This document shows, piece after piece, positions 5,899 to 46,890 of a stretch of DNA of 64,000 bases. The stretch comes from Escherichia phage AV108. Under the pieces are notes generated by a model. That model saw only the letters and a list, made by a program, of their open reading frames with translations, was not told the DNA's origin and did no database searches. The DNA lies in the sequence record OR352938.1. One strand, written 5' to 3'. How positions within the stretch are numbered: the first letter of the stretch is position 1; every line of letters begins with the position of its first letter. Made by a program: the position numbers and the translations under genes.

Positions 5899-6192
5899 TT
5901 ATAATGCTTTATATGCGTATTTCATAAATTTGTCTGCCACTTCATTGGCATGTTCAGATTCTACGCCTGATTCGAGAACAATAGCTAGGTCGGTTTCGTC
6001 ATTCCCGCCGTACCAATGATTTGATGTTCGATTTTTTTCAATTGGAAATTGGTCACTTTTATCTGTGCGACAAAATACATCTAAATGCTCGTCGATGTAA
6101 AAGATCCAATCTTCATAAAGAATAACGGTATTAGCAAGATTTTTATTGCCTTCAACGAAAGGTTCGGCTACAAACAAATTAGTATGTTCCAT
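5899..6192 (-). CDS. small protein, divergent paralog family member F
   Basis: ORF track 5899..6249; likely start ATG 6190-6192 (MEHTNLF) with GAGGAA RBS; motif SNHW and AIVLESG. Confidence 0.45.
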   Translation of the reverse strand: MEHTNLFVAEPFVEGNKNLANTVILYEDWIFYIDEHLDVFCRTDKSDQFPIEKNRTSNHWYGGNDETDLAIVLESGVESEHANEVADKFMKYAYKAL

Positions 6193-9016: not shown

Positions 9017-9482
9017 TTTCACCTCGTTTTGTTAAACGTTCACGAATATCATTGAGGATACTACAAAATTCCGATTCAGTCAATATAGTCTTTAACGGAT
9101 CAGTTCCACCTATGCTATGACGCAATTTCTTATTTCCGGTAGCGAGTAATGCTTTACAAAATTCTGGGTTATTCCGTGCCATCGTAACAAATGCCAGATG
9201 TACCAGTCTGTAATAATGCTCACTCATTCGATGAATAGGGCGACCCTGAAAATATAACATGTGATTCTCAATCTTTTCAGTTCTTCCGGTTCTTTTTGCT
9301 TTGCCACCGTGCATCAAAAAGATTTCTCTTTGTCTCTGAGGGTTCTTAAATCTTAGCCCCTGTAAAAATCCTTCTGTGCTGTTAATATCGCAACCAAATA
9401 GACGGAATGGTCTTTTATTGAAATTACTCAATTCACCCGATGGATAAGGTCCACCCGCATAGATATCAATTTCAGAAGTCAT
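9003..9482 (-). CDS. NADAR (YbiA/DUF1768-like) domain protein
   Basis: by-eye similarity to E. coli YbiA: SNFxxxPF, T.E...Q..KF, LLATG, GG.D...ILT...N.LG segments. Confidence 0.55.
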   Translation of the reverse strand: MTSEIDIYAGGPYPSGELSNFNKRPFRLFGCDINSTEGFLQGLRFKNPQRQREIFLMHGGKAKRTGRTEKIENHMLYFQGRPIHRMSEHYYRLVHLAFVTMARNNPEFCKALLATGNKKLRHSIGGTDPLKTILTESEFCSILNDIRERLTKRGENVNS

Positions 9483-9636
9483 TGAAACTAATCTCGCTAA
9501 TCAGAGAGAACGGATCATAATCGTCATTAGGAATATCGATAGTAATCGAATGAGGGTTTACCCATACACCAAACTGGTCTTCTTCGGTTAATACTTCGGT
9601 ATGGATTTCGTGGATGTTTACATTCATAGTTTTCAT
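9472..9636 (-). CDS. small protein (54 aa), below the ORF-track cutoff
   Basis: ATG 9634-9636 with AAGGAAA RBS; stop overlaps the NADAR start by 11 nt. Confidence 0.35.
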   Translation of the reverse strand: MKTMNVNIHEIHTEVLTEEDQFGVWVNPHSITIDIPNDDYDPFSLISEISFNDF

Positions 9637-38852: not shown

Positions 38853-39098
38853 TTGGCGCATAGACGCGCCTGAATCGCATTTTGACGCTGTATGATGAAA
38901 ACAGGTAGCGTACCAGTCATCGGCTTGTTTGTCTTCGTCAGAAAACGCGTAATTGCGTTGTATGCCGTTTTCTACTTTGACCAGTGCAATAGCTGTTTCT
39001 GGAAGATCAATCAATCGGACAAAATCGCCATCTTCCCATTCTACACGAGCAATATCATAACCCATCTCAAAATAAACAATCGCTTGCTCTAATCTCAT
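38850..39098 (-). CDS. hypothetical protein
   Basis: 82-aa ORF, last gene of the minus-strand early block. Confidence 0.4.
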   Translation of the reverse strand: MRLEQAIVYFEMGYDIARVEWEDGDFVRLIDLPETAIALVKVENGIQRNYAFSDEDKQADDWYATCFHHTASKCDSGASMRQ

Positions 39099-39445
39099 TC
39101 TGGAAACTTCCCGTAAACATTCTCTGCCAACTTACGTGCATCGCTAATAATATCTTTCATGTGATGGTCGTATTGCTTTGCCATAATAAGAATACAATCA
39201 ATGAAGAATGAATAACGTCTAGAATTTACTAAAAAGTTTTTACCTAGTGAATCAAACGGATCTGGATCATCAAGTTCGATAGATTCTCTAACTTTAGACA
39301 ATTCTTTCATTACAAGGTTTACATCGTTTATAATATCTTTTGATTTATATGCGCCTTTCTTTAACAATATGGCGGTCAATTCTGACGCAGTTTCTTGAAA
39401 TTCTTTCTGATAAGCTGAGTTTACATCATCATCGATATTAAACAT
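39095..39445 (-). CDS. hypothetical protein, tandem paralog 1
   Basis: starts MFNIDDD and ends ENVYGKFPE, like the neighbouring 39455..39787 product. Confidence 0.5.
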   Translation of the reverse strand: MFNIDDDVNSAYQKEFQETASELTAILLKKGAYKSKDIINDVNLVMKELSKVRESIELDDPDPFDSLGKNFLVNSRRYSFFIDCILIMAKQYDHHMKDIISDARKLAENVYGKFPE

Positions 39446-39454
39446 AATCGCCTC

Positions 39455-39787
39455 TCAAATATTGCCGTAAATGTTTTCAGTCATGGTTCTTGCTTCTTCC
39501 AGCATTTTGGTCATGCTCATGGTGTAGTTGTTATCTCGTACAGACTTAATAACGACAAGCAAGGAATCTAGGAAAACTTTATATACTCTCCATTTTACGC
39601 TATTGTTGAATAGTTTTATATCTTCTACTTTATCGATCAGATAACCTAAAACAGATAGCGCCTCGTTCACTTCTTCCGTTACTTTACTGCCACTAAACCA
39701 GATGGGGTAAAGCTGGATTGACAGCGACCGTGCTGCCTCTTTCAGTTCGGTCGCCTTCCATGATTCATATTGATCAAAGTTAAACAT
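39455..39787 (-). CDS. hypothetical protein, tandem paralog 2
   Basis: starts MFNFDQ and ends ENIYGNI; similar length to paralog 1. Confidence 0.5.
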   Translation of the reverse strand: MFNFDQYESWKATELKEAARSLSIQLYPIWFSGSKVTEEVNEALSVLGYLIDKVEDIKLFNNSVKWRVYKVFLDSLLVVIKSVRDNNYTMSMTKMLEEARTMTENIYGNI

Positions 39788-39799
39788 TATAGAATACCA

Positions 39800-40132
39800 T
39801 TACAGATGAAAACCTGTTACGATCACCGCATCGATCATACCGCTAGGAATAAACGGTTCGCCCTCTTTTATTTCAACTTTGAATTGATGCCATTTCGCTA
39901 ATACTTCTTCCGGTACACCCAGCGATTTGGCGTCTGCTTTAGTTTCATCCATAATCCAACTAGGCTGCATGAGAGCATAGTTTACATAGTCCATTTCTGG
40001 GGTCATGTCATCAATGTTAATATATTTGCAGTTGACGCGTTTCAGAATTTCAAATTCTTTATTGTCAACCTGTACCATGTATAATTCAGTAGTTTCTGGA
40101 ATCAGTTCCCACACAATCAGTACATTTTTCAT
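39800..40132 (-). CDS. hypothetical protein
   Basis: 110-aa ORF. Confidence 0.45.
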   Translation of the reverse strand: MKNVLIVWELIPETTELYMVQVDNKEFEILKRVNCKYINIDDMTPEMDYVNYALMQPSWIMDETKADAKSLGVPEEVLAKWHQFKVEIKEGEPFIPSGMIDAVIVTGFHL

Positions 40133-40140
40133 AGTTCACC

Positions 40141-40509
40141 TCACTTAACAAAGATTTTCTTTAATGCTTTCAGGATCGTTGCTTCCGGCGCTTCTTCCGG
40201 TGGAGGAAGCAATTCTACCACTTCCTCTTCCAACTCGATATAGTCTACCAGATATTCTACATAGAATGCAAGTGCTTCCATGAAATTAGATGCTACATCC
40301 GATTCACCACAAGCGCCTACATGCATTGTATAAACATCACTGCGATCAAGTTTGTGGATGCTTCCCAGATAGTTTCGGTTATACCAAACTTCCCACACTT
40401 TCAGCTTTCCGGTTTTAGTCGCTGTTTTATAATCGGTTTCGTAATGATGCAATTGACGTTGCAGATCATTGATAATAACACATTTTTCGTAATTGTTTTG
40501 AATTTCCAT
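40141..40509 (-). CDS. hypothetical protein
   Basis: 122-aa ORF with acidic Pro/Glu-rich C-terminus. Confidence 0.45.
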   Translation of the reverse strand: MEIQNNYEKCVIINDLQRQLHHYETDYKTATKTGKLKVWEVWYNRNYLGSIHKLDRSDVYTMHVGACGESDVASNFMEALAFYVEYLVDYIELEEEVVELLPPPEEAPEATILKALKKIFVK

Positions 40510-40519
40510 GATGTAATCC

Positions 40520-40711
40520 TCACTTATCGTTAAGAAGTTCTAAAACCTTCTGTCGTACTTTATCAATATTAGTTGATTCAAAAACTGTACGGTATCCCCA
40601 GCTTTGACCGTATGAGCGCGAGCAATCCCCATATCCCCATTGTTCAACCTGATAATATTCAAGGAATGGATGTTGTCGAACTATGATACCATCGCGATTA
40701 AAAATTACCAT
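40520..40711 (-). CDS. hypothetical protein
   Basis: 63-aa ORF. Confidence 0.35.
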   Translation of the reverse strand: MVIFNRDGIIVRQHPFLEYYQVEQWGYGDCSRSYGQSWGYRTVFESTNIDKVRQKVLELLNDK

Positions 40712-40734
40712 GATATAATCCTCACGTCAACAAC

Positions 40735-41016
40735 TTATTTTCTGTTGTACTTCTGCCACTTTCTGTAATACTGCTTGTAAAATTGTTTAATGTTTGGTGG
40801 TTCGTCACTATACATGTTATCAACCATCATGTCAATAAGACCTTCCGGTGTTTGATAGTTACCCGCTCGAATGAGTTCCTTAATCAAAAGATCTTGTGCC
40901 GCTTTATACTTGACAATAACAACTGTCTTTTCTGCCTTTCCAATTCCGATCCGGTCGTTAGCTCTCATAGCATCCCACCAATCTTTTTTAAACTTCATGT
41001 TGTTAAATTTCATCAT
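40735..41016 (-). CDS. hypothetical protein
   Basis: 93-aa ORF abutting the stop of the upstream gene. Confidence 0.45.
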   Translation of the reverse strand: MMKFNNMKFKKDWWDAMRANDRIGIGKAEKTVVIVKYKAAQDLLIKELIRAGNYQTPEGLIDMMVDNMYSDEPPNIKQFYKQYYRKWQKYNRK

Positions 41017-41816
41017 TAACCCTTCTTATATTCGCAAACATATTGAGTACCATAATCATAGCTAATGCGACCTTTCTCGATGACTTCAAAGCGGATTTCA
41101 TCGTTTTCCCCTACCCACATTTTGTACTCGTTGAAGTATCCTGCTACATCCGGTTTGCTCATACCAACAACCATATTTTTATATTGTTTGCTGCGTGTCA
41201 GATTTGATTTAAACACTTCGCGCTCATCAACATATACGAAAGAAGACAATTCACCTTCGGTCATGGTCATTTTCAGCTTGCCGCCCTTATTGCCATAAGT
41301 AGAGTTGCCATACAATGGATCTTTGCGGCTGTCTGTTTCAATACCATCAATGATTTTCCATGTAAATTTTGCAATGCACTGATAAGTGATAGATCCAGAG
41401 ATTTTCTCTTCTTTCTTCTGTTCTTCCACCACTTTTTCTTCCTGTTTCGGTTGTTCTTCTTCAACCTTCGCAGAAGTCTCTGAATCGCTTTCTGACGCGG
41501 TTTCTTCTTTAGGTAATACATTCATCAAGTTTTGGATTTGAGCGTTGTATACAGCCTCCAGTGGCTGAATCTGCCCGATATTGATCATTGTGTCACGAAC
41601 AGTTTTATTCCAGTTTCGTTGCTCTTGTTTCAGAGACGGATCAATCTTAACAGCCTTAACATACACCTCATGAAGTTTAGAGTCCAGTGCGGAGATAGAC
41701 TCATTAGCACAAATAAACTTCTCTGATTTGGTAGTAGCTTTAGCGCAATCAAAGGACGCAGCGTTAGCACCGAAAGCAGTAGCAGAAAGAACGATAGCAG
41801 CGATAATGTTTTTCAT
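41016..41816 (-). CDS. secreted DUF1311 (LprI-like N-terminal domain) protein
   Basis: signal peptide MKNIIAAIVLSATAFGANA; FDCAKATTKSEKFICANESISALDSKLHEVY and EQRNWNKTVRD fit the DUF1311 signature; acidic linker; promoter 41850-41878. Confidence 0.55.
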   Translation of the reverse strand: MKNIIAAIVLSATAFGANAASFDCAKATTKSEKFICANESISALDSKLHEVYVKAVKIDPSLKQEQRNWNKTVRDTMINIGQIQPLEAVYNAQIQNLMNVLPKEETASESDSETSAKVEEEQPKQEEKVVEEQKKEEKISGSITYQCIAKFTWKIIDGIETDSRKDPLYGNSTYGNKGGKLKMTMTEGELSSFVYVDEREVFKSNLTRSKQYKNMVVGMSKPDVAGYFNEYKMWVGENDEIRFEVIEKGRISYDYGTQYVCEYKKG

Positions 41817-41849
41817 AATATATTCCTCAATGTTTTTCTTGATGGGAGT

Positions 41850-41878
41850 ATCTTACTACTCCCTTAATCCGGTGTCAA
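41850..41878 (-). promoter_or_regulatory. sigma70-type early promoter (variant spacer)
   Basis: tgtcaa 41873-41878; -10 inside palindrome GGGAGTAGTAAGATACTCCC. Confidence 0.45.
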
Positions 41879-41885
41879 CTACTTT

Positions 41886-42098
41886 TTAATTTTTACCCGC
41901 TCGTGCATTAATACGCATTTTCTGCATAGCCATGATCTGGTTTACTGCTTCTTCTTTACGTTCTTGCGTGATAACGTGACCAGATTCAGCAAACTCTCCC
42001 GCAACTTCTTCTACGATCTCGCGAACTTGAGAACGTCCAAAGATGCGGTTTCCTTCGTAGCTCATAAATTCAGTCACTACTTGCTCAATAGATTTCAT
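41886..42098 (-). CDS. hypothetical protein
   Basis: ORF track 41886..42143; likely start ATG 42096-42098 (MKSIEQ) with AAGGAGAATCAC leader; promoter 42127-42155. Confidence 0.45.
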   Translation of the reverse strand: MKSIEQVVTEFMSYEGNRIFGRSQVREIVEEVAGEFAESGHVITQERKEEAVNQIMAMQKMRINARAGKN

Positions 42099-42126
42099 GT
42101 GATTCTCCTTTAGTTTGGTATGGGAG

Positions 42127-42155
42127 TATAATACTACTCCCATTTCTTTACGTCA
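42127..42155 (-). promoter_or_regulatory. sigma70-type early promoter
   Basis: cgtcaa 42150-42155, TATTAT -10 inside palindrome GGGAGTAGTATTATACTCCC. Confidence 0.45.
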
Positions 42156-42159
42156 ACAA

Positions 42160-42390
42160 CTATTTTAAATTATTTTCGACCTTCATCCATTCCGCGTATT
42201 CTTGCGCGGCTACTTTCGGATTTAGTCCGTCTTCGTACATTGCTTCAAGTAATTCTTCGTCGGTGGGCTTATATCCTAGATAAGCCTCCACCTGATTTTT
42301 CCAAATTTTATACCAGTTCATATTATCACCAATCAAGAGCGCGTGTCTCTGCGTCTTCCCATGCTTGATCCATAACAGCCTTGAAAACAT
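42160..42390 (-). CDS. hypothetical protein
   Basis: 76-aa ORF; real start may be the internal MNWYK at 42321. Confidence 0.35.
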   Translation of the reverse strand: MFSRLLWIKHGKTQRHALLIGDNMNWYKIWKNQVEAYLGYKPTDEELLEAMYEDGLNPKVAAQEYAEWMKVENNLK

Positions 42391-42598
42391 ATTCTAGAGT
42401 ATCATCTTTAGAGAATCCGAAGACCTTAGACGGGATATCTTCAATTGCTACTCCCGCAACTTCTGCATTACGCGCTTGGCAATAATGCAACTCTAAGTTA
42501 TCGAGATAGCGACCGCCTAATTTATCCATATCATCCCAGCATTTCCAGTAACCTACTTGATCTGCAATTGCTAACACTTTGCTGTTTTTGTTGCTCAT
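42326..42598 (-). CDS. hypothetical protein
   Basis: ORF track 42326..42661; likely start ATG 42596-42598 (MSNKNSK) with AAGGAGAATCAAAG leader; promoter 42630-42658. Confidence 0.45.
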   Translation of the reverse strand: MSNKNSKVLAIADQVGYWKCWDDMDKLGGRYLDNLELHYCQARNAEVAGVAIEDIPSKVFGFSKDDTLEYVFKAVMDQAWEDAETRALDW

Positions 42599-43104: not shown

Positions 43105-43308
43105 TTATTTCCTCTCTGAAAATTCTTTCATCAAGCTGTCGATCTTTGCTCTGTGTTCTGGTGTGTTTGTTATCTCTGCTAACTTATTCAGAGATTCAAT
43201 AGTGATCCGGTTGGCTTCTTCCATAGTCTCAACGACCATTGGCACAATCTTTTTATTGTTGTACACAAATGCAATATAACCGCCTTCTGGATATTCTTTC
43301 ATAATCAA
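43105..43308 (-). CDS. hypothetical protein
   Basis: 67-aa ORF directly downstream of gene 52. Confidence 0.4.
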   Translation of the reverse strand: MIMKEYPEGGYIAFVYNNKKIVPMVVETMEEANRITIESLNKLAEITNTPEHRAKIDSLMKEFSERK

Positions 43309-44666
43309 CCCTTCTTAAGTTCTTTAAGATCTTTCTTATATTCCTTCATTGCTGTCGTCTTTGTCCAATACTCATATTCACTATGATGTTTATCGGCATC
43401 TTTGACCAGTCGATCATACTCTTCTTGAGTAACGCTATACAATGGCATAGAAACTAGCTTATCGGCGTATGGACGCAGTTTTTCGTGTCCATTGATGGAT
43501 TGCATTACCTCGGCCTTTTTCTTGCCCTGTAGCTCGATTTCGCCCTTAATTACGCGGTCGATAAATTCAGCTTTAGCCATTGCATAATTGTATGCTTCCA
43601 GCGTTTCCGCTTGCATCAATTCAATGCGTTTATCTACATAGCCTAATCGGATTTCGACGAATCGACGGATCAGATCGCTCGCTTTCTCGAATACTTCTAC
43701 TAAACCACGTTCGTTAACTACTACGATATTCTGGGCTACTAACTGCGTTAGTTTAAAATCCTTCATGATTTGCTCATGTCGAGCGGATTCATCTTCGCTT
43801 TTGAAATAATCGCGTTTCAGTGTTACTTCAAATCTGAATCCGTCCTTAGAGCAACGGTCATTATACGATACAATCAGATCTTTTTCTTCCAGTGCATCAA
43901 GTACCGCTACATATTCTTCACGGTCGAACTTATAAGGAACTTCTGATATTGTCAGCTTAGTCTTGCCGTTTAGTTCATATGTACCCTCAAGAATCACACC
44001 ATCGCGATCATCTCGCGGGATAACTTTACCCGTGAATTTCGGGAATTGAACACTAGGTTCTTTATCCAGTTTTCCGGCAAGTGCTAGCTCTGTGCATTCA
44101 ATGAGGCTTTCCAGTGAATGCGGTAAAATGTCAGTTTTATACCCTGTAGCAATACCACTAATACCATTAGCCAATACCATTGGCACAACTGGCAAGTAGA
44201 ACGCTGGCGGGATGTGTTCCAGATCTTCGTGCTTGGGTGCGCAATTCATATCTTTATAGATTTTAAAGAAGTTTTCATGCACGCGAGCAAAGATATAACG
44301 TGCCGCACCTGCTTTCTGGACTAAACGCGATCCGAAGTTACCTTGACCGTCAAGCAGTGGAGTATTATTGCTCCATGTATTCGCCATAAGTGATCCGGCT
44401 TCTACGGCATTAGTTTCCCCGTGGTGATACCCCAACTCAGCGACACCAGATCCAATATCTGCCATCTTACGGAATTTCTTACGGTCGCCTTTACTCTTTT
44501 GCAAAGCACATTCCATAACAAAGCGTTGCACTGGTTTAAGACCATCAACTAATTGAGGAATCCCGCGTTCCTCAGCAGAATAGATCGCATATTCCTTAGC
44601 TTCATTATGTACAATGCTTTCAAAGCTGCGGTAAGTAACTGATTTATTCATCTTCACCTCATACAC
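43305..44666 (-). CDS. 52: topoisomerase II medium subunit (GyrA-like)
   Basis: collinear with T4 gp52 as recalled (DGLKPVQRFV, LLDGQGNFGSR, AARYIFAR, PAFYLPVVP). Confidence 0.9.
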   Translation of the reverse strand: MYEVKMNKSVTYRSFESIVHNEAKEYAIYSAEERGIPQLVDGLKPVQRFVMECALQKSKGDRKKFRKMADIGSGVAELGYHHGETNAVEAGSLMANTWSNNTPLLDGQGNFGSRLVQKAGAARYIFARVHENFFKIYKDMNCAPKHEDLEHIPPAFYLPVVPMVLANGISGIATGYKTDILPHSLESLIECTELALAGKLDKEPSVQFPKFTGKVIPRDDRDGVILEGTYELNGKTKLTISEVPYKFDREEYVAVLDALEEKDLIVSYNDRCSKDGFRFEVTLKRDYFKSEDESARHEQIMKDFKLTQLVAQNIVVVNERGLVEVFEKASDLIRRFVEIRLGYVDKRIELMQAETLEAYNYAMAKAEFIDRVIKGEIELQGKKKAEVMQSINGHEKLRPYADKLVSMPLYSVTQEEYDRLVKDADKHHSEYEYWTKTTAMKEYKKDLKELKKG

Positions 44667-45021
44667 GCTTACAAATCACATTCTTTACTTTATCAGATTT
44701 ATCAGCCCAATCCAATAGCCATTTTAACGGAAGGATTGAAACAATAAACGGGGCAGCAATCAAAGCAAACATGATACACCGGATAATCAGGAAAGTGCAA
44801 GTAACAAAGCTAGCGATACTGATCCCGACAAAACAAAATACCATAGAAAACAGAGTAATGATATAGAAAGGCCAGAATACCCACTCCCGCATCTTAACGC
44901 CTTTGTATTCTCTGAATTGCTTAAAATCTACAAACAACTCTCGGATAGACGCGTACAGGACCGAAAAATCATCTTTCATTGCTCTGAATGAGCAATCTTC
45001 TATTTTAGAATGACCTAGCAT
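44659..45021 (-). CDS. membrane protein
   Basis: two or three hydrophobic helices; exact start uncertain. Confidence 0.4.
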   Translation of the reverse strand: MLGHSKIEDCSFRAMKDDFSVLYASIRELFVDFKQFREYKGVKMREWVFWPFYIITLFSMVFCFVGISIASFVTCTFLIIRCIMFALIAAPFIVSILPLKWLLDWADKSDKVKNVICKRV

Positions 45022-45317: not shown

Positions 45318-45362
45318 AATGTATTCCCTCTAAGAAAGGCCGCGCAAAGCGGCCTATGTTTA

Positions 45363-45695
45363 TTATTGTTCTACAGTATAACCGTTGTTTTCAAGCCATG
45401 CAATAACAATCTTTTCGCCAATTTCATCGAGCATTTCATCAGAGCCATATTCTTTGATGAAAATCGATGGATCGTTATTGCTTACTACGTGCTGGATCAC
45501 AACATGTTCAGGAATTGCGTCTAGCAGTTCGCTATGATCATACTCATTAACGATATCTTCAACACTAACATTATTAACCAAATCAACATCATCCATAGTC
45601 ACAGTAACGCGACCGGACGGACGCAATGAATATTGGCTACTTTCAACTTCAACATGTGCACTTTCGCAAGTAACTTTCATATCAACCATAATCAA
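45363..45695 (-). CDS. strongly acidic small protein (DNA-mimic candidate)
   Basis: 110 aa with about 23 Asp/Glu against about 5 Lys/Arg. Confidence 0.45.
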   Translation of the reverse strand: MIMVDMKVTCESAHVEVESSQYSLRPSGRVTVTMDDVDLVNNVSVEDIVNEYDHSELLDAIPEHVVIQHVVSNNDPSIFIKEYGSDEMLDEIGEKIVIAWLENNGYTVEQ

Positions 45696-45703
45696 TTCCT
45701 CTG

Positions 45704-46705
45704 TTAGTAATGGCTAAAACCTTCGGTCACATCTTCAACCACATAGTAACGATGACAGCGCATTTTGGCATTTGCATAATCTTTCGGGATACTTACAACG
45801 TGACGCGGATCAACTTTGCATTTAATGATTCGGCCTCGTCCACCGCCATAGTGAGGAATATAGTGTTTCGCTGCAACGTGGAGGCCATTAGAGCAAGTGC
45901 GATCATCATCTGGGTCCACGTCTTTACGCTTCATTTTAACCGTGCGCCCTGGGCTATTATCAAACGTATGCGTAAAGAAATCTTTATAATCAACATCAAC
46001 ACGTTTCCATGCATAGAAACAACCATCTTCCCCGATCTCAATGTCGTTGTGCTCTAAGAAGTCAAACAGACGATCTACGGCCTTACGGCTAGGGTTTTTC
46101 TTGCACTTCTCAAAGAAGTTCAGATAGTGCGTATATGGCTTATTCTCTTTAATCGACTCCACAACTCGACGAGTCAGATTATTATCAAGAACAATATTAT
46201 GATAATACACAATACCATTTTCGATACGGAAAGCGCCGTGATAATATACTTCAACCGCTTTCTTAATGTCAATCAGCGTAATTGCTTTAATAAAATCATT
46301 CTGCTTAACTGCTTCCAGTGCTTCATTAAAGTTAACATGCGACGGATCAGCAGTATAAACAATGTCACCACATGTAATAGTAATAAACTTAGTTGAGGCT
46401 ATTGCTACGATTTTTGAGGAAGTAGTCACGGGCTTTTTTGCGCGTTCACCGCCTTTTCCTTTACTGGTTTTACGGCGTGCTTTACGTTTTTCTAGTGCCT
46501 TGCGGCCTTCCGCTACTGCGTCTTTCTGGATCAATAATACACGGGAGGCAGTGCGACGAGATACACCAAATGCTGCCGCAAGTGCTTCGCGGGTAGTAAA
46601 CTTACCTTCGCCCCACTGTTTAGCCAGTTTGATTTGTTTCGCAGAATCCAGGCATTGAACGTTACGGTCAGAGACGGTGATTTTTGCTTTAGTCATAGTA
46701 TTCAT
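45704..46705 (-). CDS. rIIB: rIIB membrane-associated protein
   Basis: C-terminal blocks match T4 rIIB as recalled (SRKAVDRLFDFL, NDIEIGEDGCFYAWK, FDNSPGRTVKM, VVSIPKDYANAKMR, YVVEDVTE). Confidence 0.88.
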   Translation of the reverse strand: MNTMTKAKITVSDRNVQCLDSAKQIKLAKQWGEGKFTTREALAAAFGVSRRTASRVLLIQKDAVAEGRKALEKRKARRKTSKGKGGERAKKPVTTSSKIVAIASTKFITITCGDIVYTADPSHVNFNEALEAVKQNDFIKAITLIDIKKAVEVYYHGAFRIENGIVYYHNIVLDNNLTRRVVESIKENKPYTHYLNFFEKCKKNPSRKAVDRLFDFLEHNDIEIGEDGCFYAWKRVDVDYKDFFTHTFDNSPGRTVKMKRKDVDPDDDRTCSNGLHVAAKHYIPHYGGGRGRIIKCKVDPRHVVSIPKDYANAKMRCHRYYVVEDVTEGFSHY

Positions 46706-46758
46706 TCCTCTATTAGTTGGGCGACTATCGCCGCCCGATTCACATCATTATACCAGAA

Positions 46759-46890
46759 TTATTTTGCTTCGACAACCTTTCGGATTGTGCGGTCTGATAC
46801 ATTATAGATTCGTGCCAGTTCGCCTTTAGTCAAGCCGCGAGCGTATTGTTTACGGATGGTTTCTTTCTGGATAGCGGTCAGTTTAGTCAT
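46759..46890 (-). CDS. small helix-turn-helix protein (43 aa) between rIIA and rIIB
   Basis: ATG 46888-46890 with AAGAGGTG RBS; MTKLTAIQKETIRKQYARGLTKGELARIYNVSDRTIRKVVEAK; below the ORF-track cutoff. Confidence 0.45.
   Translation of the reverse strand: MTKLTAIQKETIRKQYARGLTKGELARIYNVSDRTIRKVVEAK

Follow-up and report, generated by a model that had tools for sequence, protein, structure and literature searches.

T7 Ocr (gp0.3) inhibits type I restriction and BREX by mimicking DNA; its fold is all-helical, and its elongated dimer imitates bent B-DNA. T4 Arn inhibits McrBC and also binds H-NS, and T7 Gp5.9 is an acidic inhibitor of RecBCD. In lambdoid phages, known anti-restriction and anti-RecBCD genes lie in the accessory region of the pL (leftward early) operon, where lambda carries ral, whose product is not acidic, directly after N. 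Many anti-restriction genes also occur on plasmids. Here, we analyzed the gene for a strongly acidic protein of a Krischvirus (RB49/Phi1-like T4-type coliphage), for which the original prediction had proposed DNA mimicry of the Ocr and Arn kind. The gene, hereafter ORF270c, corresponds to RB49ORF270c and lies in a window of 64,000 nucleotides, i.e., the whole stretch of phage DNA that was analyzed (Escherichia phage AV108, OR352938.1).

ORF270c has some of the traits of the DNA-mimic class, namely, a high content of Asp and Glu, a low pI, few basic residues, and an acidity that is conserved in its relatives. The likeness to T7 Ocr extends to size (117 residues in Ocr, 108 in ORF270c), pI (4.05 and 4.09), the share of Lys and Arg (about 5% in both), cytoplasmic location, and early expression, which for ORF270c we infer. 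However, the charge density of ORF270c is lower (-0.167 versus -0.239 per residue), and whereas Ocr is all-helical, ORF270c is predicted, by a weak model, to start with a beta-hairpin. T4 Arn is likewise an acidic early product of a T4-type phage (92 aa), encoded in the same broad early region, but its gene lies between asiA and motA rather than in the rIIB-52 interval, and it is less acidic (-0.098 per residue); ORF270c thus falls between Arn and Ocr in charge per residue. With lambda Ral and Rac Lar, the likeness is one of position: short relatives of ORF270c sit where those two genes do in the early-left operon (in E. coli, directly after N), but they have no Pfam match to Lar_restr_allev, and some of the same prophages have a separate Lar gene elsewhere.

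Neither the single protein nor the family profile matched an entry of Pfam (E ≤ 1) or NCBIfam, and the 32 family members compared with Pfam gave no match (32/32). Against PDB chains, nothing was significant by sequence or by profile; the best E value, 0.06, was for bacterioferritin, a relation confined to a single pair of helices that show an 'EY..ELL..I...WLE' pattern, which we treat as chance. Membership in the Ocr family was rejected, as hhalign of the family profile with T7 Ocr gave 1.1% probability over 8 columns and there was no PDB or Pfam match, and so was membership in the Arn family (0.2% probability in hhalign; different location). The same holds for ArdA/KlcA, given no Pfam match among the 32 members, no PDB match, and no plasmid-borne member, a plasmid search having found none of the family. 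ORF270c clearly lies, by these comparisons, outside the Ocr, Arn, and ArdA lineages.

Ten small ORFs of the window (eight in 38853-42598, plus 9475-9636 and 5902-6192) were also compared with PHROGs, and none matches one annotated AsiA, Arn, or MotA. Next to the holin gene, two ORFs of 116 and 110 aa (39098..39445 and 39458..39787, minus strand) are taken as tandem paralogs because both match phrog_9457.

Gene, composition, and transcription unit

On the minus strand, the ORF spans 45363..45695 and has 110 codons if TTG is the start. An ATG two codons inside the TTG, at 45689, is the probable start and gives a coding sequence at 45363..45689 (minus strand) of 108 aa plus stop. A Shine-Dalgarno sequence, GAGGA (45697..45701, minus strand), lies 7 nt 5' of this ATG, at a site where an RBS is annotated in Ec_Makalu_003, and the ATG is used by all annotated genomes (RB49, RB49ORF270c, AAQ15474.1; GEC-3S, BN201_0274; 108 aa in both). 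The length of 110 aa first given for the product stands as the number of codons from the TTG, and the likely ATG start shortens the protein to 108 aa. ORF270c is a genuine conserved gene.

The acidic composition was counted correctly in the original prediction: 10 Asp and 13 Glu make 23 acidic residues, against 5 basic ones (3 Lys and 2 Arg), i.e., 21.3% D+E and 4.6% K+R. The calculated pI of 4.09 and net charge of -18 are in keeping with it. Per residue, the net charge of -0.167 lies about 3 standard deviations from the window mean (-0.013, standard deviation 0.048, for 96 long non-overlapping ORFs), and ORF270c ranks second in acidity per residue among these 96. The top value in the window belongs to an ORF of 54 aa (9472..9636, minus strand; net charge -10, pI 4.05) that matches phrog_15277, a cluster with no assigned function, and further fairly acidic ORFs exist in the window. 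ORF270c has neither a signal peptide nor a hydrophobic stretch (GRAVY, -0.22) and, because it is without a hydrophobic segment, its product is taken to be soluble and cytoplasmic.

As had been stated, the gene lies between rIIB and gene 52 (43305..44651). We identified rIIB (45704..46705, minus strand) by its match to phrog_609, 'RIIB lysis inhibitor' (E 2.4e-106), and it is annotated in RB49 and GEC-3S; its product has a pI of 9.5 and a net charge of +20. A gap of 14 nt separates the rIIB stop from ORF270c. On the 5' side of rIIB, a sigma-70-type promoter with an extended -10 element (TTGTCG, 17 nt, TG-n-TATAAT; 46747..46775, minus strand) scored 10/12 plus the TG in a consensus scan and is annotated at the same site in GEC-3S. 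On the 3' side of ORF270c, a terminator scan found a GC-rich hairpin, AGGCCGC-UUUGC-GCGGCCU, followed by UUCUU (45337..45355, minus strand; RNA fold, -13.9 kcal/mol, z -2.4), where a terminator is annotated in GEC-3S and Makalu_003. The first element is likely the early promoter of a rIIB-ORF270c transcript, and the second is likely an intrinsic terminator or attenuator that closes the unit. Based on this layout of promoter, rIIB, ORF270c, and hairpin, we regard ORF270c as co-transcribed with rIIB, and the joint transcription is probably early, a timing drawn from the sigma-70 type of the promoter and from the analogy with T4 rII.

Inside the rIIB coding sequence, a near-consensus sigma-70-like site (TTGACA, 18 nt, TATATT; 11/12; 46243..46272, minus strand) could be the source of a separate ORF270c transcript. 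In the 5' leader of rIIB (46706..46746, minus strand), a GC hairpin (GGGCGGCGATAGTCGCCC) separates the promoter from the RBS. Between rIIA and rIIB, a 43-aa ORF (46759..46890, minus strand; phrog_15481) encodes a bare helix-turn-helix (CENP-B_N, E 7e-06; sigma-70 region 4, E 2e-04) with a weak likeness to the N-terminal helix-turn-helix of RIIB profiles (phrog_609, E 0.009). The 3' end of this small ORF is overlapped by the rIIB promoter, and the ORF is kept in all Krischvirus genomes checked. The rIIB-52 interval of the window holds only three small genes; that of T4 holds denB, ndd, stp, and ac. One of the small ORFs here, ORF268c (44659..45021, minus strand), lies just upstream of gene 52 and encodes a protein of 120 aa with a pI of 9.1, a long hydrophobic core, and the look of a membrane protein. 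In a contig from a second T4-like phage (L012), its homolog is 36% identical and its position is unchanged; ORF268c may correspond in position to T4 ac/52.1.

Relatives and their genomic neighborhoods

ORF270c matches phrog_14049 over its full length (residues 1-108; E 5.9e-66) and phrog_7311 weakly (E 8.7e-07), with further weak links to phrog_11519 and phrog_18028; all four PHROGs are listed as of unknown function. The first two are sequence clusters that come without functional knowledge, and ORF270c is placed among them by the full-length profile and by the signature motif. Single-sequence searches recovered only close Krischvirus copies. The other relatives came from a profile HMM search of 1.84 billion representatives and from two profile searches of a set of 5.8 billion, and the family comprises about 80 to 100 sequence clusters, every member of which is labelled 'hypothetical'. 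In the literature that we searched, no paper was found to mention ORF270c, its accession, or its PHROG identifiers, and the family motif was not found as protein text in the supplements of a phage accessory-gene screen (bioRxiv 10.1101/2023.04.06.535777). The gene itself had already been annotated, as hypothetical; the novelty of the present analysis lies in the recognition of the family and its two forms, of its occurrence in two kinds of phage, and of the hot spot in the hairpin.

The recovered relatives are 69 to 127 aa long and share W98, L87, V106, E49, Y50, and G103. They come in a short, one-unit form of 69 to 80 aa and a long form of 103 to 108 aa; Krischvirus and two large phages from metagenomes carry the long form. 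Both phrog_14049 and phrog_7311 are matched by the short forms of prophages. All intact relatives are acidic (pI 4.05 to 5.0; net charge -4 to -22), despite identities of 26 to 45%, and at least 11 alignment columns (positions 3, 31, 36, 39, 44, 45, 49, 85, 88, 92, and 100 of ORF270c) hold at least 69% Asp or Glu. Acidity is, on this alignment, a conserved trait of the family. The invariant or nearly invariant residues (L87, W98, V106, Y50, I46, and G103) are for the most part hydrophobic or aromatic. The first strand of the hairpin has, in the short forms, an h-K-h-K pattern, i.e., a Lys-x-Lys face, opposite an h-E-h-E pattern in the second strand, and the lysines are lost in Krischvirus; because these Lys and Glu strands are paired, part of the charge may be structural, as cross-strand salt bridges, rather than functional.

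The short forms were found in lambdoid prophages of Enterobacter, Yersinia, E. coli, Citrobacter, Klebsiella, Pantoea, Proteus, Providencia, and Vibrio. Their place is always the pL operon, in a stretch rich in small, variable accessory genes that follows the repressor gene and N and precedes cIII, kil-like genes, Gam, RecT/Erf/Rad52, and the exonuclease; in the E. coli prophages, the family gene comes directly after N. Clustering at 40 prophage loci revealed no constant partner among the neighbors, most of which are small uncharacterized genes. The prophages with short forms often also encode Lar, methyltransferases, or GamL, so the pL position alone does not single out restriction as the target. 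In 5,426 complete E. coli genomes, the acidic gene was absent (0/5426), whereas the neighboring Nmad5 gene was present in 8; the acidic gene, as judged from this distribution, is a cassette that is gained and lost. A tblastn search of cultured phages with a short form returned a single weak match, in phage Pondi.

The Nmad5 gene encodes a 'nucleotide modification' protein and stands right after the family member in two E. coli prophages (L010 and L011, 8278..8946 in each). In two Vibrio prophages, the operon of the family member also encodes a YqaJ-type exonuclease of about 570 aa with a domain that matches T7 Gp5.9 (5515..7254 in L013 and 5568..7256 in L014), an arrangement in which a recombination nuclease would be fused to a DNA-mimic-like module. 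Two metagenomic proteins of 80 aa (P0056 and P0057) are chimeras: their first ~40 residues are the family hairpin, and the rest matches the C terminus of the neighboring coiled-coil gene, which suggests deletion or recombination joints within the pL accessory region.

The rIIB-52 interval of L012 also contains a homolog, 40% identical to ORF270c, in a genome whose rIIB and gp52 are 84 to 87% identical; two other ORFs stand there between rIIB and the homolog. No paralog of ORF270c was found in the window, and a six-frame search of the T4 rIIB-asiA region (157000-168903) with the family HMM gave no match below E 0.6.

Protein architecture and divergence within Krischvirus

ORF270c can be divided into three parts. 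The N-terminal part, codons 1 to 41 (45567..45689, minus strand), is predicted by AlphaFold2 (AF2) to form a beta-hairpin with strands at residues 10 to 17 and 24 to 33. Codons 42 to 72 (45474..45566, minus strand) form a first helical unit, x-I-V-x-E-Y-x-x-x-E-L-L-D-x-I-x-E-x-x-V-I...N-N, and codons 73 to 108 (45366..45473, minus strand) form a second copy, which ends in the family signature W-L-E-x-x-G-Y-T-V and is almost invariant in Krischvirus. The pattern of the unit reads I-V-x-E-Y...L-L-D-x-I-G-E-x-x-V-I-x-W-L-E-x-x-G-Y-T-V. Aligned with itself, ORF270c scored 49, compared with a mean of 21.4 (standard deviation, 4.1) for shuffled sequences, none of which reached that score (0/2000), and the family HMM aligns to two separate stretches of it. 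Since the family alignment, the internal alignment, and the two-stretch HMM match agree, we infer that the long form arose through tandem duplication of the C-terminal helical unit.

The best AF2 model, built from an alignment of 32 sequences, has a beta-hairpin and five short helices. It is still weak (pLDDT 66.5, pTM 0.38; pLDDT 46 with 7 close sequences), and at this low confidence it matched neither known folds nor solved DNA mimics.

Within Krischvirus, ORF270c was found in all 58 matched records (58/58), at 84 to 100% identity by tblastn. The surrounding 2.2 kb is 98 to 98.6% identical in the best 25 of the 58 matching genomes and at least 90% identical in all 58. Between diverged alleles, the dN/dS of ORF270c is 0.12 to 0.19, indicating purifying selection, and its dS is about 0.5, whereas rIIB reaches 0.13 in those pairs of phages. 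The divergence is concentrated in a hot spot at 45561..45660 (minus strand), where the binned nucleotide identity to Makalu_003, SSG23, and Skers falls to 67 to 70%, whereas the flanking 100-nt bins are 90 to 100% identical. This 100-nt bin covers codons 10 to 43, the 5' third of the gene; the C-terminal half of the protein is almost invariant among Krischvirus. According to the alignments and the substitution map, the most variable part is the loop at residues 17 to 26, in which a 3-residue indel separates alleles, and two allele types, of 108 aa and of 105 to 106 aa, occur in the genus. Such a pattern suggests that alleles are exchanged or that evolution is rapid and centered on the hairpin and its loop, and patchy rapid divergence of this kind would be expected for accessory genes engaged in an arms race.

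Candidate functions of the acidic protein

The explanation that we tentatively favor, and that may well be correct, is that ORF270c is a stoichiometric acidic decoy or inhibitor that acts in counter-defense or host takeover. The accessory gene would be expressed early, together with rIIB, from the sigma-70 promoter, and its product, predicted to consist of a short beta-hairpin and two small helical units in tandem, would use its conserved negative surface, soon after infection, to occupy the basic surface with which a protein of the host or of a resident prophage binds nucleic acids. The target would most likely be a defense nuclease or sensor or a nucleoid-associated protein. In this scheme, the early timing, the inhibition through protein-protein contact, and the kind of target are our deductions. 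We favor it because acidity is conserved across the family, the product is small and soluble, the genes lie in early operons of two unrelated types of phage, at hot spots of accessory and counter-defense genes, and their evolution is fast and patchy. Against it, we count that an acidic composition is unspecific, that part of the charge may be structural, as noted above for the short forms, that neither sequence nor fold links the protein to a known inhibitor or DNA mimic, and that the family has no plasmid members.

DNA mimicry directed at a type I restriction enzyme would be one specific version of this decoy idea. DNA mimicry by ORF270c is a plausible hypothesis that its context strengthens: the composition and location on which the original prediction was based were borne out, and the family-wide acidity and the relatives in pL regions now speak for it, whereas the protein is no relative of Ocr or Arn. 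The narrower proposal, that ORF270c is an Ocr- or ArdA-like mimic that blocks type I, or perhaps type III or BREX, restriction, is in our view unlikely. It draws on a charge density between those of Arn and Ocr, on the retention of acidity throughout the family, and on the location of the E. coli prophage homologs at the ral position just after N. In addition, at least some Krischvirus phages have canonical, unmodified cytosine DNA, which would expose them to restriction (PMC13390438). However, there is no homology to Ocr, Arn, or ArdA and, with the weak model, no fold match; the predicted beta-hairpin and short helices are unlike the all-helical Ocr; and the prophages that bear homologs often have Lar, methyltransferases, or GamL as well.

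The early host-takeover neighborhoods in both types of phage, with N and kil-like and cIII-like genes beside the prophage members, would also suit an acidic effector with a target outside defense. AsiA, T7 Gp2, Kil, and PinA would be models for such an effector if it acts on a host factor of transcription, replication, or division or on a protease; H-NS, HU, or another nucleoid protein could likewise be the target. A small, soluble, acidic product agrees with such a role. We nevertheless regard this role as rather improbable, as fast patchy divergence and presence or absence as a cassette fit variable defense targets better, and ORF270c has no similarity to any such effector.

Another reading makes ORF270c (-18) a partner or regulator of the RII proteins that would pair with the basic RIIB (+20) made from the same mRNA. 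The 14-nt gap, the common promoter and terminator, the similar RBS sequences, and the opposite charges are consistent with it, as is the rIIB-ORF270c order, which is kept in all Krischvirus genomes checked. The distribution of the family makes this partnership quite improbable: most members reside in lambdoid prophages, whose inspected neighborhoods (about 8 kb on each side) contain no rII genes, two ORFs part rIIB from the homolog in L012, and in T4 this place is taken by denB.1, which is unrelated, and the rIIB-asiA region lacks family members. Finally, that the composition is incidental, the protein being dispensable and its charge serving no role or the ORF being unexpressed, would fit the presence of other fairly acidic ORFs in the window but is highly improbable in view of the purifying selection, the good RBS, the acidity kept at 26 to 45% identity, and the occurrence in 58/58 Krischvirus records.

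Returning to the acidic decoy or inhibitor that we favor, we also consider a bolder form of it, which is possible but doubtful: the family may represent a structurally novel class of nucleic-acid-mimic counter-defense proteins that is common to virulent T4-type and temperate lambdoid phages. In such a class, the constant helical module, duplicated in Krischvirus, would provide the decoy surface, and the fast-evolving hairpin would tune which defense protein is bound or which sensor is evaded.

Krischvirus phages are candidates for therapy and, with unmodified cytosine DNA in some of them, their escape from restriction and DNA-sensing defenses is a practical question. The family offers a cheap and concrete set of genes for addressing it: it is compact, it spans two very different phage life styles, it sits in known hot spots of counter-defense, and it supplies natural one-unit and two-unit variants together with a naturally hypervariable hairpin. 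Should ORF270c prove inhibitory, the few protein mimics of nucleic acids would gain a new fold, and the protein could be used as a probe or trigger to find the defense systems that it targets.
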